DNA of 64,000 nucleotides, taken from the IMG/VR virus record IMGVR_UViG_3300020177_000966; one strand, 5' to 3'. This document shows, in pieces, positions 26,683 to 51,641 of the stretch (the first letter of the stretch is position 1; each line of letters begins with the position of its first letter). The notes below the pieces were generated by a model, which did no database searches, was not told the origin of the DNA, and saw only the letters and a program-made list of their open reading frames with translations. A program made the translations under genes and the position numbers. The stretch comes from a virus. Taxonomy: Duplodnaviria > Caudoviricetes.

Positions 26683-27953
26683 TGATCAAAGTTTATGGCG
26701 ATGTAATGTTAGATCGATGGATTATCGGAGAAGCATCTAGGATTAGTCCGGAAGCACCTGTACCAGTATTGCTCGAAACACATCAAGAATTAAAACCAGG
26801 AGGCGCTGGCAATGTTGCATTAAATATTTCTAGTTTAGTTGGTGAAATTAGTTTATACGGTGCCATATCTACAGATAAAGAAGGATATCAGCTCGTCGAA
26901 TGTTTTGATAAAAATACAAATATTGATTTTAATGTAGTAATGGATGCAAATGTAACCACTAGTAAAAATAGAGTAGTAGGACAAAATGGACAACAGATAG
27001 TACGATGGGACAGAGAAGAAAAATATTCTAATAATACTGCATTTGAAAAATTATTAAAAGAAATTAATAAAGACGATGTTGTTGTAATAAGCGATTATGA
27101 TAAAGGTGTAATTAGAAAAAATACTGTACAAACCTTAGTATCTAAAGGATGTAAAGTAATTGTTGATCCTAAACAATCACCTGATTTTTATGATGGTGCA
27201 TTTTTAGTAAAACCTAATATGAAAGAATATACTGAATGGTTTGGTGAATTTAAAAAAGAATTAGCTATTGTACATCTTAAAAATCATAACTGGAAATATC
27301 TCGTAGTCACAGACGGTGCAAACGGAATGCATGTACTATGTAACGATTTAACCTACAGGCATTTTAAAGAACCTGTTAAAGAAGTTGCTGATGTTACTGG
27401 TGCTGGTGATACTGCATTGGCAGTAATTGCATATGGAATTAACGAAGGTATGGATATTTTTAAAGCATGCGAACTTGCATGCTATGCAAGTGCAAGATCT
27501 GTTGAACATCGTGGAGTGCATGTTGTAACAATGCGTGATATTAAAAGAAAAGTAATATTTACAAATGGAGTGTTTGATGTACTACACGCCGGACACTTAG
27601 AATTGTTAAAATATGCAAAAAGTAGAGGTGATAAATTAGTAGTTGGTGTTAATAGTGATGCTAGTGTTCAAAGATTAAAAGGTTCTAATAGACCAATTAA
27701 CGATATTGCTACACGTATTGAACAACTTGAAGTGCTTCCTTGGGTAGATGAAGTAAAGGTATTTACAGAAGATACCCCAGAAAATTTGCTCAAAATAGTC
27801 AATCCAGACTTGATTATTAAGGGCGGAGACTATATAATAGAGACTGTAGTTGGTCATCAAGATTATAATGTAGAAATTTTTCCTACAGTTAAAGGAAAGT
27901 CAACCACAAATATAGTAGAGAGAATACATGAAAATTTTAGTAACAGGACATAA
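26682..27953 (+). CDS. hldE: Bifunctional heptose-7-phosphate kinase / heptose-1-phosphate nucleotidyltransferase
   Basis: GDVMLD...RISPEAPVPV, GGAGNVA, DVTGAGDT (PfkB kinase); TNGVFDVLHAGH, VGVNSDASV.RLKG..RP, KGGDY, GKSTT. Confidence 0.92.
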   Translation: MIKVYGDVMLDRWIIGEASRISPEAPVPVLLETHQELKPGGAGNVALNISSLVGEISLYGAISTDKEGYQLVECFDKNTNIDFNVVMDANVTTSKNRVVGQNGQQIVRWDREEKYSNNTAFEKLLKEINKDDVVVISDYDKGVIRKNTVQTLVSKGCKVIVDPKQSPDFYDGAFLVKPNMKEYTEWFGEFKKELAIVHLKNHNWKYLVVTDGANGMHVLCNDLTYRHFKEPVKEVADVTGAGDTALAVIAYGINEGMDIFKACELACYASARSVEHRGVHVVTMRDIKRKVIFTNGVFDVLHAGHLELLKYAKSRGDKLVVGVNSDASVQRLKGSNRPINDIATRIEQLEVLPWVDEVKVFTEDTPENLLKIVNPDLIIKGGDYIIETVVGHQDYNVEIFPTVKGKSTTNIVERIHENFSNRT

Positions 27954-28764
27954 AGGCTTTATTGGAAGTCACATTGCAAATTATATGTTGCATAAAGGGC
28001 ACGAGGTTGAAGGTTTTGAATATGTTGAAAACGTTGTTCCGGCAGTAGATCAATATGATTGGGTAATTCATACTGGTGCAATTTCAGATACGACAGAAAG
28101 AGATATTGAAAAAGTTTGGGCTCATAATTACGAGTTTACGCTAAGGCTATTGCAAGTTTGTGATAATTACGGCACAAATATTCAACTAGCAAGTAGTGCA
28201 AGTGTGTATGGTCCATATACCGATTTTAATGAAGATGCGCCAAAATATCCGCAAACACCTTATGCTTGGAGCAAATACTTAGTTGATAAATTTCTAGTTG
28301 ATCATGGAATTTATCAACCAGACTCATTTCAAATGAATGTACAGAGCTTCCGTTATTTTAACGTATACGGTCCTGGAGAAGGTCATAAAGGTGATCAAAT
28401 GAGTCTTGTAAGCAAGTTTCAGCGTCAAGCAGAACAAGACGGTGTTATTAAACTTTTTAAAAACAGTGATCAGTATAAACGTGATTGTGTCTGTGTATAT
28501 GATATAGTGCGTATACACGAACAAATGATGGAACAAGATGTTAGCGGTATCTATAATGTTGGAACTGGTAACGCAATTAGTGTAGAAAAAGTTGCTCAAT
28601 TAGTTGCTGAAAAACATAATGCAACTATTGAATATATTGATATGCCTGATAAACTTAAAGGACAATATCAAGAATATACATGTGCAGATAATGCAAGATT
28701 ACATAATACAATTCCAATTAGACATTGGATTACTGTGGAGGAATATTTAAATGGAGCCAACTAG
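27928..28764 (+). CDS. hldD: ADP-L-glycero-D-manno-heptose 6-epimerase-like NAD-dependent epimerase
   Basis: GHKGFIG, ASSASVYG, YAWSK, FRYFNVYGPGEGHKG.QMS, RDCVCV; adjacent to hldE. Confidence 0.85.
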   Translation: MKILVTGHKGFIGSHIANYMLHKGHEVEGFEYVENVVPAVDQYDWVIHTGAISDTTERDIEKVWAHNYEFTLRLLQVCDNYGTNIQLASSASVYGPYTDFNEDAPKYPQTPYAWSKYLVDKFLVDHGIYQPDSFQMNVQSFRYFNVYGPGEGHKGDQMSLVSKFQRQAEQDGVIKLFKNSDQYKRDCVCVYDIVRIHEQMMEQDVSGIYNVGTGNAISVEKVAQLVAEKHNATIEYIDMPDKLKGQYQEYTCADNARLHNTIPIRHWITVEEYLNGAN

Positions 28765-29170
28765 ACTTGAAGGCAAAGTAGATAAAGGTTGGGGATATGA
28801 ACTAATCTGGGCAACTAATGACAAGTACTGTGGTAAGATTATGGTGTTTGATCGCGTTGGGGCAAAATTTAGTATGCATTTTCATAAAGAAAAAGACGAA
28901 ACATGGTTTGTAAACAACGGAAGATTTTTGTTAAAATGGATCGATACTGAAACTGCTGAATTTAAATCGCAAGAACTTACTGAAGGAATGACTTGGCATA
29001 ATCCTCCTCTTCAACCTCATCAAGTAGTATGTATGGAAGCAGGTAGTAGTATTACAGAGGTAAGTACTCCTGACAGTGTAGAAGATAATTATAGAATTAT
29101 GCCAGGAGATAGTCAAAAAAAATCTCAGGCAATACCTGAGATTCTTTCCGATGAAAGTACGGGCTGTTAA
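28751..29170 (+). CDS. Cupin-fold protein (sugar-phosphate isomerase-like)
   Basis: KGWGYE, FSMHFHKEKDETW, PHQV, EVSTPDSVEDNYR. Confidence 0.7.
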   Translation: MEPTRLEGKVDKGWGYELIWATNDKYCGKIMVFDRVGAKFSMHFHKEKDETWFVNNGRFLLKWIDTETAEFKSQELTEGMTWHNPPLQPHQVVCMEAGSSITEVSTPDSVEDNYRIMPGDSQKKSQAIPEILSDESTGC

Positions 29171-37743: not shown

Positions 37744-38307
37744 TTATCGTAGATCAACTAAGCTATGAGCAAATTGATAAAGATTATCAAACACTTCTGT
37801 TTGTTTTTTAAGGTCTTTATTAGCAAAAGAATCTAATTTTTCAATGGTTTCTTTTCCGTGTCCAGTACGCAACAATACTGGGCGAGCTTTAGCTTTAACT
37901 GCGGCTTTAAGATCTGTAATTTTGTCACCAACGTATACACCGTTTTTCCAATCTACTCCAACTTCGGCAGCGGCACGTTTAAACATTCCTATATTGGGTT
38001 TTGCATAAATGTCATCTTTTAAATTAGTAGTTGAATAATATAATCCATTAATATTTTTACAACCAACTTCGCCTAATAACTGTAACATATAGTTATGCAC
38101 TACATCAACATCAACTGCATCACAAATACCTTTCATAATGCCGGCTTGATTTGTTAAAATAACAACATCATATCCTTTGTCTCGAATCATTTTTATTGCT
38201 TCTAAACTTCCTGGAATAGGTTTAAATTGTTCAGGTTTAGTTACATATGTACCAATATCTTCGTTGATAGTTCCGTCTCGGTCTAATCCAATTACCGGTG
38301 TACTCAT
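37744..38307 (-). CDS. gmhB: D-glycero-D-manno-heptose 1,7-bisphosphate phosphatase (HAD family)
   Basis: GLDRDGTIN, VILTNQAGI, KPNIGMF, YVGDKITDLKAA, LLRTGHG. The Cys-based Zn motif of E. coli GmhB is not evident. Confidence 0.85.
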   Translation of the reverse strand: MSTPVIGLDRDGTINEDIGTYVTKPEQFKPIPGSLEAIKMIRDKGYDVVILTNQAGIMKGICDAVDVDVVHNYMLQLLGEVGCKNINGLYYSTTNLKDDIYAKPNIGMFKRAAAEVGVDWKNGVYVGDKITDLKAAVKAKARPVLLRTGHGKETIEKLDSFANKDLKKQTEVFDNLYQFAHSLVDLR

Positions 38308-38310
38308 TTA

Positions 38311-39171
38311 TTAAGGTCTCCATCTATCATCTGACCAACCTATCTTATCAGAATTAAACCATTTTAAATCTTCTAAGTAGATAAGATCTTTATCTATATA
38401 CTGTTGTTTCCAAAAATCTACAAATTCTTTTGTCTCGGAAGTAAGTGATTCAACATGTGTGTCAACAAACTCTGCGGCTTCGTGTGTTAAAGGATGAAGT
38501 TCTGGCAGTAGCATATGTTGCGAGTCTGCTGTTCTATCAGGAACACTCTTAGGTCTGGTATCTGCAAATGCTTGATCAGTTCCAAAGTTTAATGCATTTA
38601 GTATTGGTGGGCAAGATGTTTGTATGTCGTCTTTATATGATTCTAGTACTGCCCTAACATCCTCTAACTCTAATTTAGAATTAGTTTTATTAAACTCAGG
38701 CGATAGTTCTTCCCAACCTTCTACTGGTTCTCTAAATGCTGTTGATACTACTTTACACCCAATACTAGACAATGCTTTATGTGTTGAACTTATAGTAGCA
38801 CAGTCTCGCATAACACAATGAATCATATCAGCCCATTGCCATTTAGTTTTGTAATAAAAATTATTAAGCACCATGCCTTCGTTATCTAAAGTTAACCCGC
38901 TAAAGTTACCTGGTGTCCACCAACCATGACCCATATGATATCTATCTTCACGAAACATACTGCTCCACTGTAATAATATAATATCATCTTTATTAAATTT
39001 ATGAACAGTGTTTGCTTCCCACAATCTCATATTAATATATTGATTGCCCGCTCCACTTCTAGCCCAGTTACTTCCTTGATAACCTTTAGATTTATATTGA
39101 TGAATTAGAATATCTGCCCAGGTTGGATAAAAGTATTGGGTTAGACTACACCCGAACGCAAATATTCTCAT
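38311..39171 (-). CDS. Hypothetical protein, SGNH/GDSL-hydrolase-like
   Basis: FAFGCSLT, ARSGAGNQYI, LQWS, LHP resemble SGNH blocks. Confidence 0.4.
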   Translation of the reverse strand: MRIFAFGCSLTQYFYPTWADILIHQYKSKGYQGSNWARSGAGNQYINMRLWEANTVHKFNKDDIILLQWSSMFREDRYHMGHGWWTPGNFSGLTLDNEGMVLNNFYYKTKWQWADMIHCVMRDCATISSTHKALSSIGCKVVSTAFREPVEGWEELSPEFNKTNSKLELEDVRAVLESYKDDIQTSCPPILNALNFGTDQAFADTRPKSVPDRTADSQHMLLPELHPLTHEAAEFVDTHVESLTSETKEFVDFWKQQYIDKDLIYLEDLKWFNSDKIGWSDDRWRP

Positions 39172-40646
39172 ACTAATCTCCGCAATAAGTCTAACATTAT
39201 CTTATGCGGAATAGATTTAATTTGATCAAATTGAATTTTTTGCTGGCATTGACGATTAACAAATTCTTGTGCGTCAGGTGGTAATGTATTGTATTGTTTT
39301 AAAATACTATTAGTATCAAATAACCCTAATCCATGCATTACAATTGCAAAATTATATTCATTAAACAGAATTTTTTTTGTATGAGAAGTTAAATCATCTT
39401 CAATGGGCATTCTGTATTTCCACATTTTTAAATTTTCTTCAAGGGTAGAAGGTAAAGGAGTTTCTGCAACAGCTCTCCAAAAAGGAGTATCACGTCTTGG
39501 TGTAATATAATGTAGTGCAATAAAGTCTCTAATATTTTCCATTATTGCGTTTACTTCTACATTATATCTATTAATTGTTTGATTATTGTAATTGACGATA
39601 CGCTGTGCTAATAACATACTTTGATTAATACTAGTTCCAATACTACTGGCTTCTAAAGGTTCTACAAAGTTTGCACTAAGGCCTATTGCACATACATTGC
39701 CAATCCAAGGTTTATCAATTGCTCCTGCTTCAAACTTAATATGTTTTGCTACATCGATACCATGTCCTAAATATTTTTCAACTTCTTCTTGTGCTTCTTC
39801 GGCTGTAATAAAATCACTATCAAAAATATAACCGTTGCCTTTACGGTCCCAAACCGGTATGCGAAACATCCAGCCTGCATTCATTGCTTTTGCCAAAGTC
39901 CAAATAGGTATTTCGTCGCCGCGCGGATCAATAGCATTAGTATATTCTGTTGGAAAAACTATTGCTTCTTTCATTTTTAGATATTTGCTGTAACTTTGCC
40001 ACTTACCGCCCACAGGCTCTATAAGCAATCTTCTAAATCCTGTACAATCAATGTAAAAGTCATAGTCGTATGTCTGTTTTTCGCCTTCAATTGTGTCAAT
40101 CTGATTGTTTTCGATAACATTTACTTTTATAATTTCATCATCAATGATTTGGCATCCTTTGTTTAATGCAAAATTAGTGAGATAGTTATTAAGTTTACTA
40201 GTATTAAAATGGTATTGACTAACTCCGGTATCGTTAGGACGTTCTTCAATAAATTTACTGAATGGAGTATGATTACGCCAAAGGTAATCACCTGTTAAGT
40301 CGCGAGGATCAACATTTTCACCAATAAGTTTAGCATATGCCATTGGCATTCCTAAATGTTTAGGTACAAAAGGTTCGTGTACATTTTGAAGGTAAGGTTT
40401 TTCTCCCCAATCTTCAAACATGATACCTGTTTTAAATGTTCCGTCAACTTCTTTAAGCATTTCTCCTGCTGATATGCCAACATGTTCCATAAATGCAGTC
40501 CAGTGTTCGGTAGAACCTTCGCCAACACCGATTGTTCCTATCTTTGTTGAACGTATTACATCAACAACGTAAGAAGGAAAACTAGTTTTTAATGTTAAGG
40601 CAGCTACAAATCCTGCTGTGCCGCCACCTACTACTGCTATTTTCAT
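39168..40646 (-). CDS. Flavin-dependent halogenase (tryptophan halogenase family) 3
   Basis: GGGTAGF, IGVGEGS, DGTFKTGI, YHFNT, YIDCTGF, GWMFRIP (WxFxIP variant), FVEPLEASS. Confidence 0.88.
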   Translation of the reverse strand: MKIAVVGGGTAGFVAALTLKTSFPSYVVDVIRSTKIGTIGVGEGSTEHWTAFMEHVGISAGEMLKEVDGTFKTGIMFEDWGEKPYLQNVHEPFVPKHLGMPMAYAKLIGENVDPRDLTGDYLWRNHTPFSKFIEERPNDTGVSQYHFNTSKLNNYLTNFALNKGCQIIDDEIIKVNVIENNQIDTIEGEKQTYDYDFYIDCTGFRRLLIEPVGGKWQSYSKYLKMKEAIVFPTEYTNAIDPRGDEIPIWTLAKAMNAGWMFRIPVWDRKGNGYIFDSDFITAEEAQEEVEKYLGHGIDVAKHIKFEAGAIDKPWIGNVCAIGLSANFVEPLEASSIGTSINQSMLLAQRIVNYNNQTINRYNVEVNAIMENIRDFIALHYITPRRDTPFWRAVAETPLPSTLEENLKMWKYRMPIEDDLTSHTKKILFNEYNFAIVMHGLGLFDTNSILKQYNTLPPDAQEFVNRQCQQKIQFDQIKSIPHKIMLDLLRRLV

Positions 40647-40653
40647 TTTTATC

Positions 40654-41229
40654 CTATTGGTCGAATGTGTACCAACCTGTTATAATATACTTAACACCTT
40701 TGTAGATAGGATTACCTCGATGTGGATGCGTAAACGATGTAGGAAAAATACAAAGTTTTCCAGGCTCAGGTTTACATTTAACTCCTTGGTATAAGAATTC
40801 AGTTTCACCGCCTTCTTCTACAGCATTTAAGTAAACGGTATATGCAAGCACTCTCGAACCTGTACTAATATCAGCATTTTCACAATGCCACATATGATAA
40901 CCTTGATGAGGTTTAGTTTTTTGAACACTCATCCCTTTAGGACTATGTTGCATAACATGACCTAAACTTTCATATTTTTTTCTATACTTTTCTTCATATA
41001 TTTTATTTAATTGTGTATAAAAGAACAAGCATAAATCTTCATCAGCATGATACATCGAATTATGATTAGCCCAATCCATGTATATGCGTTCATCTTGATT
41101 CTTTATACTACTTTGTAAAGTAGTTATTTGCTTTGAAGACATTTCTTCGAATCGTTTAATTACTTGTCTACACCAGTCAATTGGAAAAGCGTTTGGATAT
41201 TCTTCGATTCCATCAAAATTACCTTCCAT
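40654..41229 (-). CDS. 2OG-Fe(II) oxygenase (prolyl-4-hydroxylase-like)
   Basis: YHMWHCE, YLNAVEEGGETEF, GKLCIFP, THPHRG, KYIITGW. Confidence 0.85.
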   Translation of the reverse strand: MEGNFDGIEEYPNAFPIDWCRQVIKRFEEMSSKQITTLQSSIKNQDERIYMDWANHNSMYHADEDLCLFFYTQLNKIYEEKYRKKYESLGHVMQHSPKGMSVQKTKPHQGYHMWHCENADISTGSRVLAYTVYLNAVEEGGETEFLYQGVKCKPEPGKLCIFPTSFTHPHRGNPIYKGVKYIITGWYTFDQ

Positions 41230-41237
41230 AGTCTCTC

Positions 41238-41939
41238 CTAAATAAAAAATTGTTGATTTAATCTATATAAATCATTAGTAAACATCTGCGGTTTTACATA
41301 CGCACTATGCAAAACTGCCTGATTGTACAATACCATTCTATTAAATTTCATTTGTGCAATGCCTAACAGCTTCCAGTCGCCAATACTATCTGAAATATAA
41401 CGAGTTACTGGAATTTTTCCTTGTACATCTAATGTGTGTGTTACACTAGGGTCGTCATAATATGTTTTCCCCCCAAAAGAATAAAAACTTGTTCCGCCAT
41501 TACACTCATTTGCTGTGTTTAAATAGATTGTAGATGCAAGATTCATTCCACTAGTATTATCCATATGAGGACAAACAGGAGGTAAATTGTTAGTTTGCAT
41601 AACATTTACCATAAATGTTGCATTCATAAAACTATGCTCCATATATTGTGGAGGATAAGCAGTCATTACTTCTGGAAAATACTGTCTTGCTAATTGATCA
41701 TATATCCATGACATACTAGATAATTCATAAAACGCATTAATACGATGTGCTGGATTATTGCCACGTATACGTCTATTTGTAGATGCAGGTATATCTAAAG
41801 CAAGCTGTCTAACATCATATGGATTTTCATAGAAGTCGTCTACTATTAATACTTTTACGTCACCGTAATGAACTAGCTGTGCATCATAATTTGGATTGAT
41901 AGCAAAAATTTTTTCTTCGTCGATAATTTTTTTATCCAT
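41238..41939 (-). CDS. 2OG-Fe(II) oxygenase-like protein (DUF6445-like)
   Basis: IVDDFYENP, CPHMD, IYLN, GGTSFY, FNRMVLY, LHSA, RLNQQFF. Confidence 0.7.
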   Translation of the reverse strand: MDKKIIDEEKIFAINPNYDAQLVHYGDVKVLIVDDFYENPYDVRQLALDIPASTNRRIRGNNPAHRINAFYELSSMSWIYDQLARQYFPEVMTAYPPQYMEHSFMNATFMVNVMQTNNLPPVCPHMDNTSGMNLASTIYLNTANECNGGTSFYSFGGKTYYDDPSVTHTLDVQGKIPVTRYISDSIGDWKLLGIAQMKFNRMVLYNQAVLHSAYVKPQMFTNDLYRLNQQFFI

Positions 41940-42543
41940 GATCGTCTCCGATTAATTTTTCTTTTATAATAAAGTTTGCACTAATTGTAGCACGAACTTT
42001 GTTAGATTTGTTTTCCGAAACGTAATGTTCTAAGTTACTAGGAAAATAGATAATTTCTCCCTCTTTTAAGGGAGGAGTTACCCTATTATTAAATTTAAAA
42101 GGTTCTGAACTTAGCCTAGGAAGTCCAGCTTGGTGAAAATAATCGTATTGATTCTTATAAAATACAAAATTTCCGCTATCTGGCGGAGTGTACATCATGT
42201 ATGCACAACTAATAACACTTTCTCCAGCATGATTATGAATTTCCTGATATTGATTTGAAGAATATCTATTCAACCAGCACTCTACTCTGTATTCTTTTGG
42301 TAGATCTAGATTAAAGATTTCAATATAATCATTTAATCCAATAACTGCTGATTGTATAAACTTTTGCCATGGTAATTTATCTGCTTCTCTATTACCAAAA
42401 GTAGTATCTACATTACTATACCAAGTTGGAATTTTAAAAAAGTGAGAATCATCTTCGAGTACGTCTTTAAAATCTTCTCGAATAGCATCATGGTTAGAAA
42501 GAGATGTTTTATAAACTGGTATAGAAAATAAATTAACATGCAT
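41932..42543 (-). CDS. Putative 2OG-Fe(II) oxygenase (TIGR02466-like)
   Basis: WLNRY, QEIHNH, ISCAYM, EGEIIYFPSNLEHYV, RATISANF. Confidence 0.75.
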   Translation of the reverse strand: MHVNLFSIPVYKTSLSNHDAIREDFKDVLEDDSHFFKIPTWYSNVDTTFGNREADKLPWQKFIQSAVIGLNDYIEIFNLDLPKEYRVECWLNRYSSNQYQEIHNHAGESVISCAYMMYTPPDSGNFVFYKNQYDYFHQAGLPRLSSEPFKFNNRVTPPLKEGEIIYFPSNLEHYVSENKSNKVRATISANFIIKEKLIGDDHG

Positions 42544-44372
42544 CAGTTTTTCATTTCAATTAATTTACCATATTCAGGCAAATAACAATATTCCATTTCG
42601 CTACTATAAAGTGTGCGTACTGCATCGTCTAATGTTTCAACTAAAGGCTCGCCTCCTAAGTTAAAGCTAGTATTAAAGATAATTGGCACACCTGTTTGTT
42701 CGTAAAATTCTTTAATTATTTCATAATAATGTTTATTTTGTTCTTGAGTCACTGTTTGAATACGACAAGTTCCGTCAACGTGAATAATACTTGGAATTTT
42801 TTCAGCAACACCGGGTTGGCAATTCATTGCATACATCATATGAGGCGACTGTTCCAAACCGCGCATATCAAACCATTCATGTGCATGTTCAGCAAGAATA
42901 GTTCCTGCAAATGGGCGGAAATATTCGCGACGCTTAATGCGATTTACATGATCTTTTCCATTTAGGTCTGTTGGATCATATAGAATACTTCTGTTACCGA
43001 GTGCTCTTGGACCATTTTCTGATCGTCCTTGGAACATTGTAACAATTTTTCTGTCTCTAATTAACTCAACTACTTTTTTATTGTCAGCGTCAACAACTAC
43101 AGCACCGTATTTGTTTGCAACTTCTTCAATTTCTTTATCTGAATGACAATAAGGAAATCCTTCATAAATTGTTTCTGTATACGGACGTACTTTTTTATCT
43201 TTAGTAGTTTGATGATAAACTAATAATGCGGCACCAATTGCTGTTCCAGCATCACTACTAACAGGCTCTACATATAAATTAATACCTTCTTTATTTAATT
43301 TGTCAAGATACCAATAATTAGCAACACAATTAAGTGCATAGCCACCACTTAGTACAACATTTTTGTTACCGCTCATTTCAACTGCCTTAAAAATAAGATT
43401 TAAAACTTCTTGCTGTGAACCTTCTTGTACAGCATATGCCATATCTCTACGGTTTTCTAATGTTGTAAGATCAACTCTACTGTTAACTACGTCTTGAGAA
43501 GTTTCAAGATATTCATATTTTCCTTCATTTACTACAGCCGCATTAGGATATGTAGGAATAATTACACTTCTATCACTAGTACGCCATTTGCCGCCATTTC
43601 CATCTGTATAAATTGGAGGAATCTTATCATTAGGTTTGCCATAAGGAGCAAGACCCATTGTTTTGCCAGCTTCAATTGGCTGAAATCCACAATACTGTGT
43701 TACTGCTTCGTAGGCCTTTGTAATACCTGCACTATCATCTAGCACAAGTTCATGGAATCCTTCTTCCCCTTCTCTTTCTGAAGGAATATATTGAACCCTA
43801 GTTCCAGGATAAGGACCGTTTCCGCCCTGATGTTTATATAATGTTTTAATAGCATCAGGATAAGAACAATTAAAAATACTTTCACATTCCCAAGTCATAA
43901 ACTCATCATTAAATGTTCCCGTAGAAATATTCATAGGAATAAAGGTGCCGGCACCGTCAACTACTACTGCAACTGCTGATTCAAAACCACTTCTATAAAA
44001 TGCACATGCCGCATGTAGTTTATGATGTACATAACTCATATCAATTACTTGTCTATGATTATGATGTCCGTCAGGAGTATATGCATTATCTGATCTATCA
44101 ATAAGTCCTAACTTTCTTGCAAGACCAGTATACATGTCTCCACCGCTAAAGTCAATTCTACTTGATTCTTCTAACGGTTGTGTATGAGCAACGACTAGAT
44201 AATCTAATTTATCAGTGTAATCTAAAAACTTAGTCATTGCGGCTAGTGGGCCGCCATCGTATTTTTTACGTGTTAATCTTTCTTCTTCGATAGCAAAAAC
44301 AATTTCACCGTCTTTTAATAAAACTGCGCCACCGTTGTGACCTCTTGTAATTGCTCCAATCCACTGTGTCAT
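42543..44372 (-). CDS. O-carbamoyltransferase (NodU/CmcH/TobZ family)
   Basis: EEERLTRKK, HHKLHAACAFY, VVDGAG, GKTMGLAPYG, SGGYALN, DAGTAIGAA, GPRALGNRSIL, REYFRPFA, NTSFN. Confidence 0.93.
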   Translation of the reverse strand: MTQWIGAITRGHNGGAVLLKDGEIVFAIEEERLTRKKYDGGPLAAMTKFLDYTDKLDYLVVAHTQPLEESSRIDFSGGDMYTGLARKLGLIDRSDNAYTPDGHHNHRQVIDMSYVHHKLHAACAFYRSGFESAVAVVVDGAGTFIPMNISTGTFNDEFMTWECESIFNCSYPDAIKTLYKHQGGNGPYPGTRVQYIPSEREGEEGFHELVLDDSAGITKAYEAVTQYCGFQPIEAGKTMGLAPYGKPNDKIPPIYTDGNGGKWRTSDRSVIIPTYPNAAVVNEGKYEYLETSQDVVNSRVDLTTLENRRDMAYAVQEGSQQEVLNLIFKAVEMSGNKNVVLSGGYALNCVANYWYLDKLNKEGINLYVEPVSSDAGTAIGAALLVYHQTTKDKKVRPYTETIYEGFPYCHSDKEIEEVANKYGAVVVDADNKKVVELIRDRKIVTMFQGRSENGPRALGNRSILYDPTDLNGKDHVNRIKRREYFRPFAGTILAEHAHEWFDMRGLEQSPHMMYAMNCQPGVAEKIPSIIHVDGTCRIQTVTQEQNKHYYEIIKEFYEQTGVPIIFNTSFNLGGEPLVETLDDAVRTLYSSEMEYCYLPEYGKLIEMKN

Positions 44373-45103
44373 ACTTTATTTTCCTTTATAAGTTTTAAAA
44401 CTTTACTTCTATATCTTGCATTTTCAAATGCTTCATAACATTCTGCTAACGGTGTTGGCAAAAATCTCTTTGCTTTAAGATTTTTAAATCCTAAACACTG
44501 CATTACAGGCCCGGTTTTAGATTCAAATAATTTAGCACTATCAAATCTAACTAATCTAACTTTCTCTGTTGTGTTAAATTTAAAGTAACACAACGTATCT
44601 CCTTGTTTTATGTCAAGTTCTCTAACATTTTTTTTAAATTTAAATGCAGGACGTACTGGTCTAATCCAACTTGCTATATTATATGTACCTGCTATACCCA
44701 TTGTGTCTCTTGAAAACTGACTTTCGCTATAATATGGAGGAAGCTGTGTCATTGTTAACGGTTTTTCACTAAAAAATAGAAAACAAGGATGATCTAATTG
44801 ATAAACACCTTCAGGATTTGGCTGTCCAATATAATTCATTAAAAAGTTAGGTTCAACATCATACTTAGAAACTAACTCTTGTCTTTCATAATCTAATTTA
44901 ATATGAAAATCAATAGGACTTTTTGCAGTAAAAGTATTTTTAGTTTCGTCAACAATTGCAGGACATAAACTTGCGCCTAAACCAAAAAATTCTCTAGCAT
45001 TTAAGTCTTTATATACTGTATTAGGTTCGTAGTACTTTAATTCAGATACAAATTCTTGGTTATCTGGTACATTTATAACTGGTGACCAATATACTGTATG
45101 CAT
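44369..45103 (-). CDS. Hypothetical protein (possible beta-barrel/dUTPase-like fold)
   Basis: 244 aa, coupled on both sides; CPAI, IASWIRP, GDTLCYFKF. Confidence 0.5.
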   Translation of the reverse strand: MHTVYWSPVINVPDNQEFVSELKYYEPNTVYKDLNAREFFGLGASLCPAIVDETKNTFTAKSPIDFHIKLDYERQELVSKYDVEPNFLMNYIGQPNPEGVYQLDHPCFLFFSEKPLTMTQLPPYYSESQFSRDTMGIAGTYNIASWIRPVRPAFKFKKNVRELDIKQGDTLCYFKFNTTEKVRLVRFDSAKLFESKTGPVMQCLGFKNLKAKRFLPTPLAECYEAFENARYRSKVLKLIKENKV

Positions 45104-45693
45104 TAATCAAACTCTACTTCGTAAATAAAGTCACAAACAAACGCTTTACGTTCTTGTAAGGTAGGATATACTCCGTGAAATACCTTGCCGTCCATAATAA
45201 TAACATCTCCAGCAATACACTTTACAAGATCGCTTACTAATTCTCCAGTTACTGGATTTTGCGTAATACATTTTAGTTTACCTGCTAAAGGTTTATCGTC
45301 ATGTAAATCTATAGTGTTCAAAAACATTACACTAGTTAATTTTCTTAATGGTAAATGTGTGTGCATTCCGCTATACGTACCTTCAGGATAACGTATCCAC
45401 CAACATTTTTCAAATTCAATACTTTTAAATCTATATGGAGCAAGTGTTTGCTTTATAAAATTAATATATTCTTGTTGCGAATCGACTTGGTATGCATATT
45501 TCATTTCTGGATTGTAACGTAGTATTGCGCCGCCGTGGTCTGTATGTTCTTGCAAACCTAAGTTGTCATCAAATAAAGGTAAAAACTTTTCATAGTTTGC
45601 AAACTTAGATTTTTTAATCCAATAGTCTGCAATTTGTCCTTGTGAACTTAAAAACCAAAAGTCTTTATTGCCTTGATATAACTCTTCTAACAT
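45103..45693 (-). CDS. Putative 2OG-Fe(II) oxygenase
   Basis: YSGMHTH, LTSVMFL, GDVIIMDGKVFHGVYP, RKAFV. Confidence 0.65.
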   Translation of the reverse strand: MLEELYQGNKDFWFLSSQGQIADYWIKKSKFANYEKFLPLFDDNLGLQEHTDHGGAILRYNPEMKYAYQVDSQQEYINFIKQTLAPYRFKSIEFEKCWWIRYPEGTYSGMHTHLPLRKLTSVMFLNTIDLHDDKPLAGKLKCITQNPVTGELVSDLVKCIAGDVIIMDGKVFHGVYPTLQERKAFVCDFIYEVEFD

Positions 45694-46313
45694 ATTGATG
45701 TCTCATAGTCAAAATCGCATACGAATACTTTGCGTTGATTTAACGTAGGATAAGTCCCGTGATATACTCTGCCATCCATAATAACACAATCACCTGCTTT
45801 TGGTACGTGTTGTAAGTAATTAGTTGAATATTCTAAAGGTTGTAGTGTAGTTAAAGATCCTGCTAACGGGTATTCTTGGCTAGTTTGAGTATTTGTTAAA
45901 AACAAAACTGCTGTTAATTGCTTGCCTGGAGTGTGACAATGTAATCCACTGTATGCTCCGGGTGCATAATCTACTCCCCACGCCTTTTTAAATTTGTTAA
46001 CTTTAATAGGTAATTCTGCACAACAAATTTTAATAAATCTATGAAAGTCCAATGTTGGATCTAAATCAATTGGATACGCCATATCTGTTTTATAGTGTAA
46101 ATATCCGTTACCATAATCTTTATGACTGTTGTCGTATACACCTTCTTCAAATAACGGTAAAAACTTTTTCCAAGTAGGATAATGATTACCTGTAATTACC
46201 CATGTTTCTAAAGTCTGTGCGGCAGCGATTTGCGGACGAAAGCTACTATCAAACAAATCATTAAGAAACGCTTCTGGGGAAGATTTATCTAATCTGCTTG
46301 GACTATCTGACAT
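45687..46313 (-). CDS. Putative 2OG-Fe(II) oxygenase (paralogue of 45103-45693)
   Basis: YSGLHCH, LTAVLFL, GDCVIMDGRVYHGTYP, RKVFV. Confidence 0.65.
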   Translation of the reverse strand: MSDSPSRLDKSSPEAFLNDLFDSSFRPQIAAAQTLETWVITGNHYPTWKKFLPLFEEGVYDNSHKDYGNGYLHYKTDMAYPIDLDPTLDFHRFIKICCAELPIKVNKFKKAWGVDYAPGAYSGLHCHTPGKQLTAVLFLTNTQTSQEYPLAGSLTTLQPLEYSTNYLQHVPKAGDCVIMDGRVYHGTYPTLNQRKVFVCDFDYETSIC

Positions 46314-47353
46314 TACTGGCCAGTCCTTCCTAAAATTTGAGCTGGTTGTTTATTAGAGTGTACTACTCCATGAGTTGGACACACATCTCCTTGTTCTTGT
46401 GGAATATAATCTCCTGAATAACTTCTCGGTTTACCTAATCGTTTGCGTACACTAGTAATAATTGCTTTAAAGTTATCGTCGTCTAGTTCCATAACTTCAT
46501 CATTAAATCGTTCAATTTCCTCTTCCATTGTAAGTCTAATAGGACTAAACTTACGTTTTCCTTCACCTAGATCAATAATATCAAAATCTGGCGAATTTGG
46601 ATATGAAATATTAATAGGATATGTACTTCCAATAACACTGGTGCATGTTGTACCTAATGCCTTTGCCATATGTTGTCCCAAACTATCACAACCAATAAAA
46701 TGATCAGCAATTTGAATAATACTTGACCAAACTCTTACATCTGGAATTTGTGGAACAGCAATAGGTACAGTTGGATTCTCTTCAATTTTAATAGGAAATT
46801 CACTCATTATAATTACAGCATAATCTTCACGTAATTCTTTAACAATTCTAACTACGTCATTTAAGTGAAAACTTCTTGATGTTCCGTCAACAATAAAGTC
46901 TCCCATATTTTCTGCTGTGCGGCCAAAGGGCTGAAACACTACTACTTTGTCTTTTCCTGTAACAGCCTTTACTTCTTCAACTACTTTATATCCTTGAACT
47001 AGTTCGTGTTTATTCATATAAATTTTTGGATCGCCTACTTCTCGCAATCCTTTATTATTAATTGCAATATCAAATGCTTGTGCTAAACTACATTTTTGAT
47101 TATAATATTCCCATACTCTGTATGGTTCAGGTGTAATACAATCTCTATCTTTGATATAGTCTCTAAATAAATTTTTATGCCAATGGTCATACGCTAGTTC
47201 GTGTAGATGTGGATGTCCTTTATAAAAGTCCATTCCTCCTTCACAAACAATAATAAAGTCTTGATCTTCTTCGTATAGTTTTTCAAATGCAGGAATTGAA
47301 CAAACAACTCTACCTGCACCACCGTTCATAAAATATGCTTTTTTTCGTGACAA
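46313..47353 (-). CDS. GT-B glycosyltransferase, GT9 (ADP-heptose transferase)-like
   Basis: N-terminal NGGAGR, VVVFQPFG, ADHFIGCDSLGQHMAKALG. TTG start with an AGGAG SD; TAAATA at 47378-47383. Confidence 0.7.
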   Translation of the reverse strand: MSRKKAYFMNGGAGRVVCSIPAFEKLYEEDQDFIIVCEGGMDFYKGHPHLHELAYDHWHKNLFRDYIKDRDCITPEPYRVWEYYNQKCSLAQAFDIAINNKGLREVGDPKIYMNKHELVQGYKVVEEVKAVTGKDKVVVFQPFGRTAENMGDFIVDGTSRSFHLNDVVRIVKELREDYAVIIMSEFPIKIEENPTVPIAVPQIPDVRVWSSIIQIADHFIGCDSLGQHMAKALGTTCTSVIGSTYPINISYPNSPDFDIIDLGEGKRKFSPIRLTMEEEIERFNDEVMELDDDNFKAIITSVRKRLGKPRSYSGDYIPQEQGDVCPTHGVVHSNKQPAQILGRTGQ

Positions 47354-47418
47354 AGTATTACTCCTATTGTATAGAAATATTTACTTTACAAACAAATTAT
47401 GAATGGCGGATGTGGCAT

Positions 47419-47447
47419 AAAAAAACCCCTGCATTGCAAGGGTTTTT
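47419..47447. terminator. Probable bidirectional rho-independent terminator
   Basis: AAAAAAACCCCTGCATTGCAAGGGTTTTT, a stem with A and T tracts on either side; separates the fibre operon from the GT9 operon. Confidence 0.75.
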
Positions 47448-47468
47448 ATTTTTAAATTTTATTAATTA

Positions 47469-48257
47469 TTATTTTTTGCCAGCTACTTTTTGTGCCGCTA
47501 CTTTAACATCAATAGCATATGCGCCATCTCTGTATGGATCATTAGGATCAGATGCTTCTTCCGGATCTCTCATATCCTTAGGCATATTAGGAAACATCAT
47601 AACTGCTTGCCAAGGTTCAAATCCTCTACCTTGAAGTAATGCAGGAAGATCACGCAATTTTTGTCTAAAATCTAACCATGCAGTTTGAATTGATTCTGGT
47701 GCGTCTGTTTGACCTACTTTAGCATCTGTTTCATGTAACATTTGATCACGTAAGTCTCTAACTTGTTGCCATGTTAGGTCCATCTTAGAACCTGTTGCGG
47801 CCCAATCTCTTACACCAAGATTAAATGTTTCTGTTTCAAAGTTATATGTAATGTCAGCATCGTTATACACATCACGTGGCTCTAACTCTAATGTATGTTC
47901 TACATCAGGAAATCCATCTGGTGCGTCCCATAATACTTCCCACTCTCTTGCACGTCTAAACTCAATTAAGTCTTCACGTCCACAATCATTACCAATTTCA
48001 CACAATAGTGGATTTTCTTTGCAATCAACTGTTACTCTTGTAATGTCTTGGGCCGCTGGTCTTTCTAAGTCTCTTTTTAACCATAAGCACCATCCTGATT
48101 CTTTACCGTAATCCTCTGATGATGTATCATTATTAACTTCGAAAGTTAAGAATTCAGGACCGACATATGTAAACGTTCCGGTCTTACCTTGTGTAAAACT
48201 ATTCTTTCTCCATTCGTCCCACACTGGGTATGTAAATTCTTTTCTAATTGTTCTCAT
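47469..48257 (-). CDS. Tail fibre assembly chaperone-like protein
   Basis: C-terminal WQQVRDLRDQMLHETD...WLDFRQKLRDLP...FP; directly downstream of the Cys-rich genes; TAAATA at 48277-48282. Confidence 0.75.
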   Translation of the reverse strand: MRTIRKEFTYPVWDEWRKNSFTQGKTGTFTYVGPEFLTFEVNNDTSSEDYGKESGWCLWLKRDLERPAAQDITRVTVDCKENPLLCEIGNDCGREDLIEFRRAREWEVLWDAPDGFPDVEHTLELEPRDVYNDADITYNFETETFNLGVRDWAATGSKMDLTWQQVRDLRDQMLHETDAKVGQTDAPESIQTAWLDFRQKLRDLPALLQGRGFEPWQAVMMFPNMPKDMRDPEEASDPNDPYRDGAYAIDVKVAAQKVAGKK

Positions 48258-48290
48258 TTTATATAACTCCTAAAAGTATTTATCATTGTT

Positions 48291-49127
48291 TTACATAAAT
48301 GTTATTCTAACAACACCTGATCCGCCTTGGCCTGATCCACCTGCACAACATTTTGCCCAGTTATTACAGTACGAGCTTACACCAGCTTGTCCGCCGCCTG
48401 CTGGCCAGTCAATGTGACAACCACATGAGCACCATGCTTCATTAGTTACACCTACTTGCATTTTACCAAATAAAGGTGCTGATCCTGAGAATGAATAAGT
48501 GTACACACAGTGACAGTAACCATGTCCTGGTTCTGTTCCTGATGTACCCATCATTCCAAAGTCTGCTCCAAATATACCACAAACGTTACAGTTAGAACAT
48601 GTATGTGAGTGTCTTGGTCCCCAAGCATCTCCATTACACATCCATCCTCCGCAACCACCTGTTGTACAAAAATTACTTAAATTGTGTCCGTTAACATATG
48701 ACTTACATCCCATACCTGCTGTACAAGTATGTGATTTACCACAAGGCCAACTACCGCCCGCACATACTGTGTACTGACATCCTGGACTTGTACTTACTGT
48801 TTTAGAAGCGTAATTGCCTCCGGCGCCGCCGATTGTAAACATACAATAGTTACAGCATGTGCTACCTGGGCCGCCACCGCCGCCTGACCAAATTTCAAAT
48901 GTTACAGTTGATGCTCCGTCTGGAACGCACCAATAACAACATTTGCCGTTTGCTTGCTCACAACATCCACTTTGTCTAGCACAACTATGGCATGCCATTC
49001 CGCGCTCATTGTATATCCACTGCACTCCCATGTTATTGCCGTTTCCGTGAGCAATATCTGAGTTTTGCACTGCACTATTAACAATACTGTCTGTATTAAC
49101 TTTTTTATAACTTGCGTATGTAGCCAT
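48291..49127 (-). CDS. Cys/Gly-rich putative tail-tip adhesin, paralogue C
   Basis: 29 Cys in 278 aa (counted); FEIWSGGGGG, GGAGGNY and GQGGSGVVRITF Gly-rich fibre motifs. Confidence 0.6.
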   Translation of the reverse strand: MATYASYKKVNTDSIVNSAVQNSDIAHGNGNNMGVQWIYNERGMACHSCARQSGCCEQANGKCCYWCVPDGASTVTFEIWSGGGGGPGSTCCNYCMFTIGGAGGNYASKTVSTSPGCQYTVCAGGSWPCGKSHTCTAGMGCKSYVNGHNLSNFCTTGGCGGWMCNGDAWGPRHSHTCSNCNVCGIFGADFGMMGTSGTEPGHGYCHCVYTYSFSGSAPLFGKMQVGVTNEAWCSCGCHIDWPAGGGQAGVSSYCNNWAKCCAGGSGQGGSGVVRITFM

Positions 49128-49139
49128 TAATTTCTTTCC

Positions 49140-49976
49140 TTATGCATATGTTACTCTTACTAAGCCCGATCCGCCCATATTTCCACCGGCACAACATTTT
49201 GCCCAGTTACCGCAATAACTAGATTGAGCTGTTTGGCCACCGCCTGCTGGCCAGTTAGTATAACATGCACAATTACACCATGCTTCTGCGTTTGATCCTG
49301 CAAACATTTTTCCTACAAATGGAGCAACACCTGTTTGTCCCCAGTCGCCTGATTTACACTGACATCCGCCATGTCCGCCTGACACTCCTGTTGATCCCAT
49401 AATTCCAAAATCTGCTCCAAATATACCACAAACGTTACAGTTAGCACATGTTTGTGTATGACGTGGACCCCAAGCATCTCCATTACACATCCAGCCCGGA
49501 CAACCACCTGTTGTACAAAAGTTACTTAAATTATGTCCGTTAACATATGATTTACAACCCATGCCAGCCGTACAAGTATGTGACTTAGAACACGGCCATG
49601 TTCCTCCAGCACAAATTGTGTACTGACATCCAGGGCATGTACTAATTGATCTTACAGCATAGTTGCCGCCTGAGCCACCTGCTGAATGCATACAATAGTT
49701 ACAGCATGTGCTACCAGCACCTGCGCCACCACCTGACCAAATTTCAAATACTACTTTTGATGCGCCCGAAGGTACAGACCAATAGCAACATTTACCATTT
49801 GCTTGTTCGCAACAATCACCGGCATCAGCACAGTGTTGGCATGCCATGCCGCGTTCGTTAAATACCCAAAAAGTATGGTACTTATTTCCTGCTCCTGGAC
49901 CTAATTTTTCTGCGCCGACACTATTATCTTGGAAGTTGTCTGTTGTTAGTGTTTTATAACTTGCGTATGTAGCCAT
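49140..49976 (-). CDS. Cys/Gly-rich putative tail-tip adhesin, paralogue B
   Basis: 29 Cys in 278 aa; FEIWSGGGAG, GGSGLVRVTY. Confidence 0.6.
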   Translation of the reverse strand: MATYASYKTLTTDNFQDNSVGAEKLGPGAGNKYHTFWVFNERGMACQHCADAGDCCEQANGKCCYWSVPSGASKVVFEIWSGGGAGAGSTCCNYCMHSAGGSGGNYAVRSISTCPGCQYTICAGGTWPCSKSHTCTAGMGCKSYVNGHNLSNFCTTGGCPGWMCNGDAWGPRHTQTCANCNVCGIFGADFGIMGSTGVSGGHGGCQCKSGDWGQTGVAPFVGKMFAGSNAEAWCNCACYTNWPAGGGQTAQSSYCGNWAKCCAGGNMGGSGLVRVTYA

Positions 49977-49988
49977 TATTCTTTTTCC

Positions 49989-50828
49989 TTACACATAAGT
50001 AATCTTTACAATTCCTGATCCGCCTTGGCCTGATCCACCTGCACAACATTTTGCCCAGTTATCACAATAACTAGATGTTCCAGGAGTTCCGCCACCTGCA
50101 GGCCAATTAATATGACATCCGCAAGCACACCATGCTTCGTTAGTTGCTGTTGCTACGTGCATTCCAATACCTGCGGCAGCACCTGACCAACTTGTTTGTC
50201 CATGACATCTACAAGTAGTAGTACCTGCTTTAATACCAGCAGTACCGGTAAATCCAAAGTCTGATCCAAAAATTCCGCAAATGTTACAGTTACCACAACT
50301 TGTTACAGCATGTCGCTGACCCCAAGCATCGCCATTACACATCCAGCCGCCACAGCCGCCGTCTGTACAAAAATTACTTAAATTATGTCCGTTAACATAT
50401 GATTTACAACCCATACCTGCTGTACATGTGTGTGATTTGCCACAAGGCCAACTACCACCTGCACAGACACTATATTGGCATCCTGGATTAGTGTCAATTG
50501 TTTTAATTGCGTAGTTTCCGCCGAAGCCACCAATAGCAAACGAACAGTTATTACAACAAGTATGTCCTGGGCCTCCGCCGCCACCGGACCAAATTTCAAA
50601 GGTTACTTTATAAACATTATTTGGAACACACCAATAACAGCATTTTCCGTTTGCTTGCTCACAACATCCACTTTCTCTAGCACACTGGTGGCAACGCATG
50701 CCACGTTCGTTATAGATCCATTGAACTTTTCGACAAGCCCCTGCACCGGGAGCTAACTTGTCCCTTGTAATAACTCCAGCTGGAATTCCTTCTGATGTTA
50801 TCTTTTTGTAACTTGCATAACTTGCCAT
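49989..50828 (-). CDS. Cys/Gly-rich putative tail-tip adhesin, paralogue A
   Basis: 30 Cys in 279 aa; FEIWSGGGGG, GGSGIVKITY. Confidence 0.6.
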   Translation of the reverse strand: MASYASYKKITSEGIPAGVITRDKLAPGAGACRKVQWIYNERGMRCHQCARESGCCEQANGKCCYWCVPNNVYKVTFEIWSGGGGGPGHTCCNNCSFAIGGFGGNYAIKTIDTNPGCQYSVCAGGSWPCGKSHTCTAGMGCKSYVNGHNLSNFCTDGGCGGWMCNGDAWGQRHAVTSCGNCNICGIFGSDFGFTGTAGIKAGTTTCRCHGQTSWSGAAAGIGMHVATATNEAWCACGCHINWPAGGGTPGTSSYCDNWAKCCAGGSGQGGSGIVKITYV

Positions 50829-50849: not shown

Positions 50850-51299
50850 TTATACAGTGTAAATACGCCAGCCGTATGTGTCGCCTGAAAATACCACTTC
50901 AAATGCCGCTCCTTCGGAGTTTACAGTCAAATCAGCCGCATCACCTTGAATTAATTTTCCGTTTCTACCAAGTGTTAGTGCATTGCTGTCAAATGTTTTT
51001 CTTAAATCAAAAAATCTAACAACATCGCCTACTGCCGGTGATCCTGGTAACGTAATCGTAAATGGTCCGCCGTTGGTATCACAGAACAATTGTTGTCCTG
51101 ATGCCGCGTTATACGCTGTTGTAACTGTAGTAGCGTTAAGAACACCTACTGGAAGCCATGCTGTACCGTTATACAATTCTAAGTTATTCAACTCAGTATT
51201 GAAACGGATTGAACCTGCTCCTGCATCTTGTGTTCTCTGTGCCGTAGTTCCGAAAGGAATTGTTAGACCTGGTGAACCTACTGAAATTCTTCTACCCAT
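50850..51299 (-). CDS. Small tail fibre protein (gp34 N-terminal-like repeat)
   Basis: IPFGTTAQR...GSIRFNTELNNLELYNGTAW fibre motif, then DTNGGPFTITLPGSPAVGDVVRFFD. Confidence 0.7.
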   Translation of the reverse strand: MGRRISVGSPGLTIPFGTTAQRTQDAGAGSIRFNTELNNLELYNGTAWLPVGVLNATTVTTAYNAASGQQLFCDTNGGPFTITLPGSPAVGDVVRFFDLRKTFDSNALTLGRNGKLIQGDAADLTVNSEGAAFEVVFSGDTYGWRIYTV

Positions 51300-51314: not shown

Positions 51315-51641
51315 TTACGCCGCTGGTACGGCTGTTTCAATTCCCATTACTACTGCATTGCAGTTAGCGCCGGATGATCTTGTAACAAGCAATTTGCCTG
51401 TGTCCAATACAATACCTGTTCTTTCAAGAACGCCGTTTGGTCCGATTGATGTATCATATTCTAGATACTCACCGCCACCTGGTGTTGCACTGGTTGCTAC
51501 TGCTAATCTTATTTGAACTGTGCTTGAACTTCTATTACAAAAAGAAACAGTCACAACGCTATAAGTATCGGCAGGAACAGTATACGTTGTTGTATCCGTA
51601 TTTGCTGTAAGATCACTAATTCCTAAAATTCCTGATGCCAT
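51315..51641 (-). CDS. Small virion structural protein
   Basis: YTVPA...CNRS...IRLA motif; similar to 61878-62207; TAAATA at 51664-51669. Confidence 0.6.
   Translation of the reverse strand: MASGILGISDLTANTDTTTYTVPADTYSVVTVSFCNRSSSTVQIRLAVATSATPGGGEYLEYDTSIGPNGVLERTGIVLDTGKLLVTRSSGANCNAVVMGIETAVPAA

Follow-up and report, generated by a model that had tools for sequence, protein, structure and literature searches.

The DNA considered here, a window of 64,000 nucleotides that is the reverse strand of positions 71923-135922 in a 167.5-kb IMG/VR viral record (IMGVR_UViG_3300020177_000966; CheckV completeness 46%), carries an operon of eleven genes, G1-G11, downstream of three genes for cysteine-rich proteins. 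We have found that the first gene of the operon, for a protein with the fold of glycosyltransferase family 9 (GT9), and its O-carbamoyltransferase gene are invariably linked to such Cys-rich genes among related phages. We propose that fibre-tip proteins are decorated late in infection with a heptose that is carbamoylated and tailored further, a reading to which we give a probability of about 0.4. It is ranked first among the readings considered because of this linkage, the late-type promoter of the relatives and the position in the fibre block, and because the enzymes are soluble with no export machinery, the host lacks Kdo (3-deoxy-D-manno-oct-2-ulosonic acid) and heptose, and the heptosyltransferase TibC provides a precedent. 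The gene content is that of a marine T4-like cyanomyovirus (gp15, a gp9/10-like protein and giant fibre proteins), and the nearest isolates are the Synechococcus phages S-SSM7, S-SSM6a and Sf-FS3. The genes of the block, and the signals between them, are as follows.

49989-50828, minus strand: Cys-rich, Gly-rich fibre-tip-like protein A, 279 amino acids, 10.8% Cys
49140-49976, minus strand: Cys-rich paralogue B, 278 amino acids, 10.4% Cys
48291-49127, minus strand: Cys-rich paralogue C, 278 amino acids, 10.4% Cys
47469-48257, minus strand: tail-fibre assembly chaperone-like protein, 262 amino acids (PF16778, Phage_tail_APC, 27.9 bits, above the cut-off)
47419-47447, minus strand: intrinsic terminator, a G+C hairpin and T-run 22 nt past the stop of the chaperone-like gene
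47378-47385, minus strand: late-promoter-like motif AGTAAATA, one mismatch to NATAAATA
46313-47353, minus strand: G1, phage-specific, heptosyltransferase-like protein of GT9 fold, TTG start (AlphaFold2 fold; phrog_8954 match)
45687-46313, minus strand: G2, cupin/2-oxoglutarate (2OG)-type oxygenase with an HxH motif (phrog_81; missing in some close relatives)
45103-45693, minus strand: G3, paralogue of G2 with an HxH motif (phrog_81; 37% identity to G2, E 1e-43)
44369-45103, minus strand: G4, phrog_17480 protein with a language-model lead to DUF6065
42543-44372, minus strand: G5, O-carbamoyltransferase of the TobZ/NodU/NovN type (Carbam_trans_N and Carbam_trans_C)
41932-42543, minus strand: G6, 2OG-FeII_Oxy_5 family protein with an HxH motif (Pfam)
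41238-41939, minus strand: G7, DUF6445 protein, HxD...H as HMD...H (Pfam and motif)
40654-41229, minus strand: G8, 2OG-FeII_Oxy_3, prolyl-hydroxylase-like protein, HxE...H as HCE...H (Pfam and motif)
39168-40646, minus strand: G9, flavin-dependent halogenase (Pfam Trp_halogenase, 307 bits)
38311-39171, minus strand: G10, SGNH-like candidate (language-model lead to DUF6071/GDSL and motif reading)
37744-38307, minus strand: G11, GmhB-like HAD-IIIA phosphatase (TIGR01662 and TIGR01656, both above cut-offs)

The linkage was counted in 80 IMG/VR loci around G1 homologues of 52-90% identity. An open reading frame (ORF) with at least 8% Cys lies within 4.5 kb before G1 in 60 of the 60 loci having more than 3 kb of upstream sequence, and a carbamoyltransferase gene follows G1 within 3 kb in all of the loci with enough downstream DNA (68/68); a single Cys-rich ORF occurs among the 684 other ORFs of the G1 loci. 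The reverse check, starting from the Cys-rich family, placed G1 downstream in 53/53 loci, and in the phage collection both branches of that family are confined to records that also have G1. The order of the core is fixed: Cys-rich genes, chaperone-like gene (always between the Cys-rich genes and G1 in the loci compared), sometimes a DUF6445 oxygenase gene, G1, carbamoyltransferase. On the 3' side of this core, halogenases, oxygenases, hldE, hldD, cupin and gmhB genes are shuffled among the relatives. The pairing is also kept where the Cys-rich proteins are no longer recognisable by BLAST, namely in P-SSM2, with two proteins of 355 amino acids and 10% Cys, in AG-345-O18 and AG-345-P14, with neighbours of 9-11% Cys and a G1 that is 37-38% identical, and in locus L070, with a neighbour of 14.6% Cys. 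In the 167-kb record itself, proteins A-C are the only ones with at least 6% Cys among 124 ORFs of at least 150 amino acids. An earlier interpretation of this DNA, here called the sequence-only reading, had suggested looking for co-occurrence of the whole operon with Cys-rich genes; G1 and the carbamoyltransferase do co-occur with them invariably, whereas the oxygenases, the halogenase and the SGNH-like gene vary. Independence of the enzymes from the Cys-rich genes, which the same reading took as counting against its idea, is likewise found in part only: the linked core holds, and similar enzyme sets surround distant G1 homologues without Cys-rich neighbours.

The Cys-rich proteins are, very probably, fibre-tip proteins of the virion. 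The AlphaFold2 model of protein A, of moderate confidence (predicted local distance difference test score, pLDDT, 75), superposes on the fibre of cyanophage Pam3 with Z = 17.5 and a root-mean-square deviation of 3.1 Å over 194 residues, and on the tail-tip protein of phage Bxb1 with Z = 11.5. The Pfam family PF21722 (Gly_rich_2) is matched by 27 of 51 members of the Cys-rich family, with a best E of 4e-8; copy A of the window does not match it. It is this fold, together with the Gly_rich_2 matches and the chaperone-domain gene next door, that leads us to the predicted fibre-tip identity, and the earlier naming of the neighbours as adhesins is borne out in so far as they have the fold of a solved virion fibre. 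So is the fibre chaperone that it had placed beside them, which carries the Phage_tail_APC domain. The three proteins, which share a conserved cysteine framework, had also been described as about 10% Cys with Trp and Pro; the Cys contents agree and Trp makes up 3.2-3.6% and Gly 18%, but Pro reaches merely 2.9%. The analogy to conotoxins and to ribosomally synthesised and post-translationally modified peptides (RiPPs), drawn from halo-Trp and hydroxy-Pro, is not supported. The RiPP label itself was rejected, the candidate substrates being folded fibre-like proteins of 278-279 amino acids with no leader or maturase logic, and Pfam and NCBIfam searches of the 11 operon genes found no RiPP maturase family. 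A block SYVNG-x-x-LSNFC is kept in 9/9 of the Cys-rich proteins compared, and the window copies (48291-50828, minus strand) have an N-x-S sequon within it.

Two further small genes lie on the 5' side of the Cys-rich genes:

50850-51299, minus strand: p149, small conserved protein starting MGR (counterparts in S-SSM7 and Sf-FS3 annotated as tail protein/Mtd N-terminal-like)
51315-51641, minus strand: p108, small conserved protein starting MASGILG (homologues 5' of the Cys-rich genes in most loci)

In most relatives, P-SSM2 and S-CAM1 among them, one or both stand before the Cys-rich genes, and the two are probably further parts of the fibre-tip assembly.

The eleven ORFs, all on the minus strand, extend from 47353 to 37744, with ten junctions of -1, -7, -1, -4, -1, -8, +8, +7, -4 and +3 bp, so that the coupling claimed in the sequence-only reading, with junctions of at most 8 bp, is accurate. 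A gap of 115 bp on the 5' side of G1 parts the operon from the chaperone-like gene and contains, in order, the terminator, AGTAAATATT, a Shine-Dalgarno sequence and the TTG start. Both control elements predicted there are found: the terminator folds with z = -3.1, equalled in 0 of 200 shuffles, and the TAAATA core lies at 47383-47378, where the near-consensus late motif reads AGTAAATATT, 1 base from the ATAAATA that stands before other late genes in the window. A scan of the DNA for sigma-70 and terminator consensus sequences did no better than on shuffled sequence. Where 34 copies of ATAAATA itself would be expected, the window has 13, of which 12 are on the minus strand, almost always before genes; this depletion, the strand bias and the place before genes fit a late-promoter role. 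The depletion is also consistent with selection against stray late promoters. In close relatives ATAAATATT is found 26-36 nt before the G1 start in 18 of 18 distinct upstream regions. The late timing that had been claimed for the operon thus agrees with the late-type promoter of its relatives and with its position inside the fibre and late structural block, a position that also speaks for decoration. G1 starts with TTG at 47351-47353 of the window and, in nearly all of the relatives listed, with TTG or GTG, ATG being rare; that a weak start is conserved behind a terminator suggests a deliberately low level of the first enzyme relative to the fibre proteins.

None of the 11 operon proteins has a hydrophobic segment suggesting a membrane span or signal peptide. 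This bears on how 'LPS genes' of cyanophages and pelagiphages are usually read (PMC3037559, PMC7029224, PMC7824862; LPS, lipopolysaccharide), namely that the tailored heptose would be put on a glycolipid, the capsule or an exopolysaccharide of the host, blocking superinfection or keeping progeny from sticking to debris. Such remodelling of the host envelope would suit GT9 enzymes, which normally act on LPS cores, and the variability of the enzymes among relatives resembles O-antigen diversity. Yet no gene of the operon codes for a membrane protein, a lipid-carrier transferase, a flippase, a polymerase or a ligase, its late-type promoter and fibre-gene position differ from the early expression usual for exclusion functions, and the invariant pairing with Cys-rich fibre-tip genes would be left unexplained. 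Cyanobacterial LPS is, moreover, without Kdo and heptose (PMC4390846), so that the host does not offer the acceptor usual for GT9. We consider envelope remodelling an unlikely alternative to the decoration of fibre tips.

G1 had been called GT9-like, an assignment that holds for the fold and the donor motif and fails for the PF01075 match and the catalytic Asp. Its AlphaFold2 model, built on 58 diverse homologues, has a pLDDT of 89.5, and the best 30 matches of a Foldseek search against the PDB are all GT9 (E 1e-10 to 9e-7, template modelling scores 0.47-0.62), among them 3TOV, WaaF, WaaC and TibC, the TibC chains ranking 6-30. In sequence searches no Pfam family matched G1 at E ≤ 0.01, PF01075 included, NCBIfam gave only local matches of 16-18 bits, to models for RfaQ and for heptosyltransferase III whose cut-offs are 170-467, and for G1, G4, G10 and the Cys-rich protein phmmer against PDB sequences gave no usable match. 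The residues D223 and H228, invariant across 58 family members, align with D261 and H266 of WaaC in a profile search and in a MAFFT alignment with E. coli WaaC and WaaF, and the donor-site motif D-(S/T)-G-x-x-H of these enzymes is kept. In the MAFFT alignment G14-R15 of G1 falls on their N-terminal G-D pair, which puts R15 at Asp13 of WaaC. We take Asp13 of this loop to be the catalytic base of WaaC. Its counterpart in TibC is Asp-110 (PMC4358343). Membership of G1 in the TibC/AAH group of bacterial autotransporter heptosyltransferases (BAHT) was considered and rejected, since no N-terminal beta-barrel, beta-hairpin thumb or four-Cys iron finger is seen; the model opens directly with a Rossmann strand at residues 4-9, and the family alignment has no conserved Cys column. 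G1 is therefore GT9-like at its donor site, yet no regular member of either known GT9 branch. The family comprises 3,966 proteins at E ≤ 1e-5, and those of its Atlas clusters that have taxon labels are viral.

That the sugar transferred would be heptose, from ADP-heptose, is suggested solely by the co-located hldE, hldD and gmhB-like genes. The heptose theme that had been noticed earlier is confirmed: the operon has a GT9-fold protein and GmhB, and genes for HldE and HldD are found outside it in the window. The supply genes are these:

26682-27953, plus strand: HldE-like bifunctional heptose kinase/nucleotidyltransferase (PfkB and CTP_transf_like)
27928-28764, plus strand: HldD-like epimerase (Pfam Epimerase; 38-43% identical to the heptose epimerase genes of S-CAM1 and S-SSM7)
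28751-29170, plus strand: small cupin, 139 amino acids, which accompanies hldE and hldD in many relatives

The HldE, HldD and GmhB-like steps of the ADP-heptose pathway are thus encoded, and from these genes the phage would appear to supply most of the pathway; the cupin may stand in for the sedoheptulose-7-phosphate isomerase, or it may be a heptose epimerase. In S-SSM7, Sf-FS3, S-CAM1 and P-SSM2 the heptose genes come directly after G1 and the carbamoyltransferase, and they adjoin this pair in most relatives, whereas in the window they are split off to the opposite strand. Directly 5' of hldE, at 23263-26682 on the plus strand, are a gene for a NUDIX hydrolase and two more flavin halogenase genes, divergent from each other, in a block that converges on the fibre genes.

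Most of the remaining enzyme assignments of the sequence-only reading could be verified. G5 scores 101 bits with Carbam_trans_N and 199 bits with Carbam_trans_C, against cut-offs of 24 and 27, and its nearest solved relatives are TobZ (E 6e-45) and, with it, NovN and GdmN, which together span E 1e-44 to 1e-55; HypF-type matches are weak. The halogenase G9, at 307 bits in Pfam, matches the solved enzymes PyrH (E 6e-57) and VirX1 (6e-40) and has the motifs GxGxxG (as GGGTAG), GTFKTG and EPLE, with WxWxIP in the variant form WMFRIP. G11 is GmhB-like within HAD-IIIA, its score of 134 bits with PRK08942 being below the cut-off of 178. G2 and G3 are indeed paralogous HxH oxygenases, and together with G4 they are inserted behind G1 and ahead of the carbamoyltransferase gene; some close relatives are without this insertion. 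As for the three further 2OG-type oxygenases, Pfam matches G6-G8, and only these among the five, but the facial triad HxD/E...H is present in G7 and G8 alone. In G2, G3 and G6 (45103-46313 and 41932-42543, minus strand) HxH stands at the place of HxD/E, and by this motif the three could belong with the three-His cupin enzymes and not with the classical 2OG oxygenases. The SGNH-like character of G10 was kept as a candidate on the strength of a language-model lead and the motifs GCSLT, close to the N-terminus, and DSQH, at 216-219; nothing in Pfam, NCBIfam or the PDB matched it.

Two further readings posit quite different products. A soluble halogenated amino-acid or sugar compound, acting as toxin, signal or antibiotic, has been proposed for the related cluster of S-SSM6a (Iyer et al. 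2021, PMC7824862), and it would accord with the nearest solved carbamoyltransferases being NovN, GdmN and TobZ, with the nearest solved halogenases being of the free-tryptophan type, and with the distant G1 homologues that stand among oxygenases, a halogenase, a methyltransferase and sugar enzymes with no fibre genes in view. We hold such a secondary metabolite to be as unlikely as envelope remodelling, as the cluster has no scaffold synthase, exporter or resistance gene, a metabolite made late would be of little gain to a lytic phage, and it would be left unexplained why only G1 and the carbamoyltransferase are fixed beside the Cys-rich genes. The other product would be a hypermodified base in the phage DNA, made by an oxygenase, a transferase and the carbamoyltransferase as in 5-carbamoyloxymethylcytosine. 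A phage carbamoyltransferase of the family of G5 does carbamoylate 5-hydroxymethylcytosine (5hmC) in DNA (PMC8670742), and phage oxygenase/glycosyltransferase pairs are known as cytosine modifiers. However, the operon is in the structural and not the replication block, carbamoyltransferases of the DNA type co-occur with thymidylate synthase homologues and not with fibre genes (PMC8670742), and neither a thymidylate-synthase-like hydroxymethylase (PF00303) nor, in a search run with no positive control, a TET/JBP protein (PF12851) was matched in the 167 kb of this incomplete record. DNA hypermodification is thus highly improbable.

For the decoration of fibre tips, the donor sugar, the acceptor, the order of the steps and their timing are what we infer from the observed gene structure, folds, families and synteny. 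Late in infection the phage would make activated heptose with HldE, HldD and the cupin (26.7-29.2 kb) and the GmhB of the operon, the isomerase step being supplied from elsewhere. G1 would transfer the sugar to its acceptor, and G5, an enzyme of the TobZ type, would O-carbamoylate the transferred sugar. The lineage-variable enzymes, that is, the five cupin/2OG oxygenases, the halogenase and the SGNH-like protein, might then tailor the product further. The likeliest acceptor would be the neighbouring Cys-rich, Gly-rich fibre-tip protein or proteins, or another fibre protein of the block. In a more specific form of this scheme, G1, with its Arg for the catalytic Asp, would S-heptosylate and the HypF/TobZ-family enzyme S-carbamoylate cysteine thiols of the fibre tip, which would amount to a system of cysteine-directed virion modification encoded by the phage and fed by its own ADP-heptose pathway. 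What the neighbours have kept is their cysteine richness and not their sequence, which makes action on thiols possible, and HypF is known to S-carbamoylate HypE; we nevertheless regard the thiol form as quite improbable.

A number of observations weigh against decoration. A nearly invariant Arg of the G1 family replaces Asp13 of WaaC, and with Arg where WaaC has its catalytic Asp the chemistry of G1 may differ from that of the known heptosyltransferases; G1 also has neither the beta-barrel nor the iron finger by which TibC holds its protein substrate. GmhA (SIS_2) was not found in the 167 kb of the incomplete record, and the solved enzymes closest to the carbamoyltransferase and the halogenase have small molecules as substrates. 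The late motif of the operon in the window has one mismatch, and a terminator divides the operon from the fibre genes. In more distant relatives (loci L033, L035-L039, L041, L043, L049, L068 and L080) a sigma-70-like promoter (TTGCA, about 17 nt, TATAAT/TATACT) overlaps the ATAAATA motif, which suggests that there the cassette may be expressed early as well as late. Finally, most of the linkage sample is one phage lineage, so that shared descent explains part of the linkage, and distant G1 homologues, of about 30% identity, have no Cys-rich neighbour in view. Some of these homologues are flanked by gp15 and gp16, and others have oxygenases, a halogenase and other transferases around them; when two distant G1 representatives were used to search for related loci, none was returned.

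Tail genes also flank the G1 homologues of an Aeromonas phage and of an N4-like Vibrio phage, which speaks for decoration. The tail proteins of 4% Cys beside them were tried as members of the Cys-rich family and rejected, BLASTP giving only an insignificant C-terminal 11-mer.

The sequencing runs that contain the window sequence are salt-marsh metagenomes and metatranscriptomes. Between 60 and 92% of sampled words from 40000-49900 were found in six RNA runs, to which carried-over DNA may contribute. A megablast search of phage records with the operon gave no match. Close homologues of the Cys-rich proteins are on contigs of 347 and 375 kb, and the lineage may consist of jumbo cyanomyoviruses with genomes of about 350 kb.

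Cyanomyoviruses rank with the most abundant viruses of the sea, and the determinants of their host range are poorly understood. If the proposal is true, a self-made carbamoylated heptose with lineage-specific hydroxyl, acyl or halogen additions would constitute a non-genetic layer of recognition and virion stability, and genes that for 15 years have been named 'LPS genes' or 'stuffer DNA' would be accounted for. The G1 family, with Arg for the catalytic Asp, may in addition represent a new kind of GT9 chemistry.

Among known systems, WaaC and WaaF (CAZy GT9; PDB 2GT1, 1PSW and 3TOV) have the GT-B fold and the donor motif in common with G1 and are its best structural matches; they differ from it in sequence (about 10-15% identity, PF01075 not matched), in having Asp13 where G1 has Arg, and in their acceptor, Kdo-lipid A, which is without counterpart in the host of the G1 phage. 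TibC/AAH is a GT9-related heptosyltransferase encoded beside its adhesin substrate TibA/AIDA-I (PMC4358343). G1 resembles it in being GT9-related and, by the proposal, in lying beside its substrate, but the neighbours are beta-helix passengers in the one case and Gly-rich fibre tips in the other, and the catalytic Asp of TibC/AAH is not in G1. G5 has both family domains of TobZ, NodU, NovN and GdmN above the Pfam cut-offs; compared with the phage 5hmC carbamoyltransferase (PMC8670742), it is without the deoxycytidine monophosphate hydroxymethylase context in the incomplete 167-kb record. The Cys-rich proteins have their fold in common with the Pam3 fibre (PDB 7YPX/7YFW), Bxb1 9D93 and Gly_rich_2, and differ from the Pam3 fibre in sequence (identity about 21%) and in keeping about 30 cysteines per 279 residues. 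Freeman et al. reportedly described in 2023 phage-encoded glycosyltransferases that modify a mycobacteriophage's own virion proteins, a case said to differ from the present one in enzymes, sugars, host and targets (capsid and tail tube).

The gene set itself is not new and has been described in silico before, contrary to the earlier statement that no pathway of this kind was described. Sullivan et al. 2010 listed the genes as T4-GC 302-308, cyanomyovirus 'LPS genes' with roles as stuffer DNA or in LPS (PMC3037559), and Iyer et al. 2021 described in S-SSM6a a sugar/amino-acid modification cluster of 8-12 genes, for capsule decoration or a secondary metabolite (PMC7824862). Their clusters are like that of the window in carbamoyltransferase, halogenase, 2OG and cupin oxygenases, HAD phosphatase, heptose genes and position by fibre genes, and the S-SSM7/S-SSM6a proteins are 58% identical to those of the window for G1 and 66% for the carbamoyltransferase. 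The window variant differs in being unusually rich in oxygenases, in having its heptose supply on the opposite strand and in the SGNH-like gene. Neither paper drew a link to Cys-rich fibre-tip genes or called G1 GT9-like. What the present analysis adds to them is the fold-level assignment of G1, with its Arg substitution and exclusion from the BAHT group, the Pam3-fibre fold of the Cys-rich proteins, and a quantified two-way linkage that extends to lineages in which just the cysteine richness survives.

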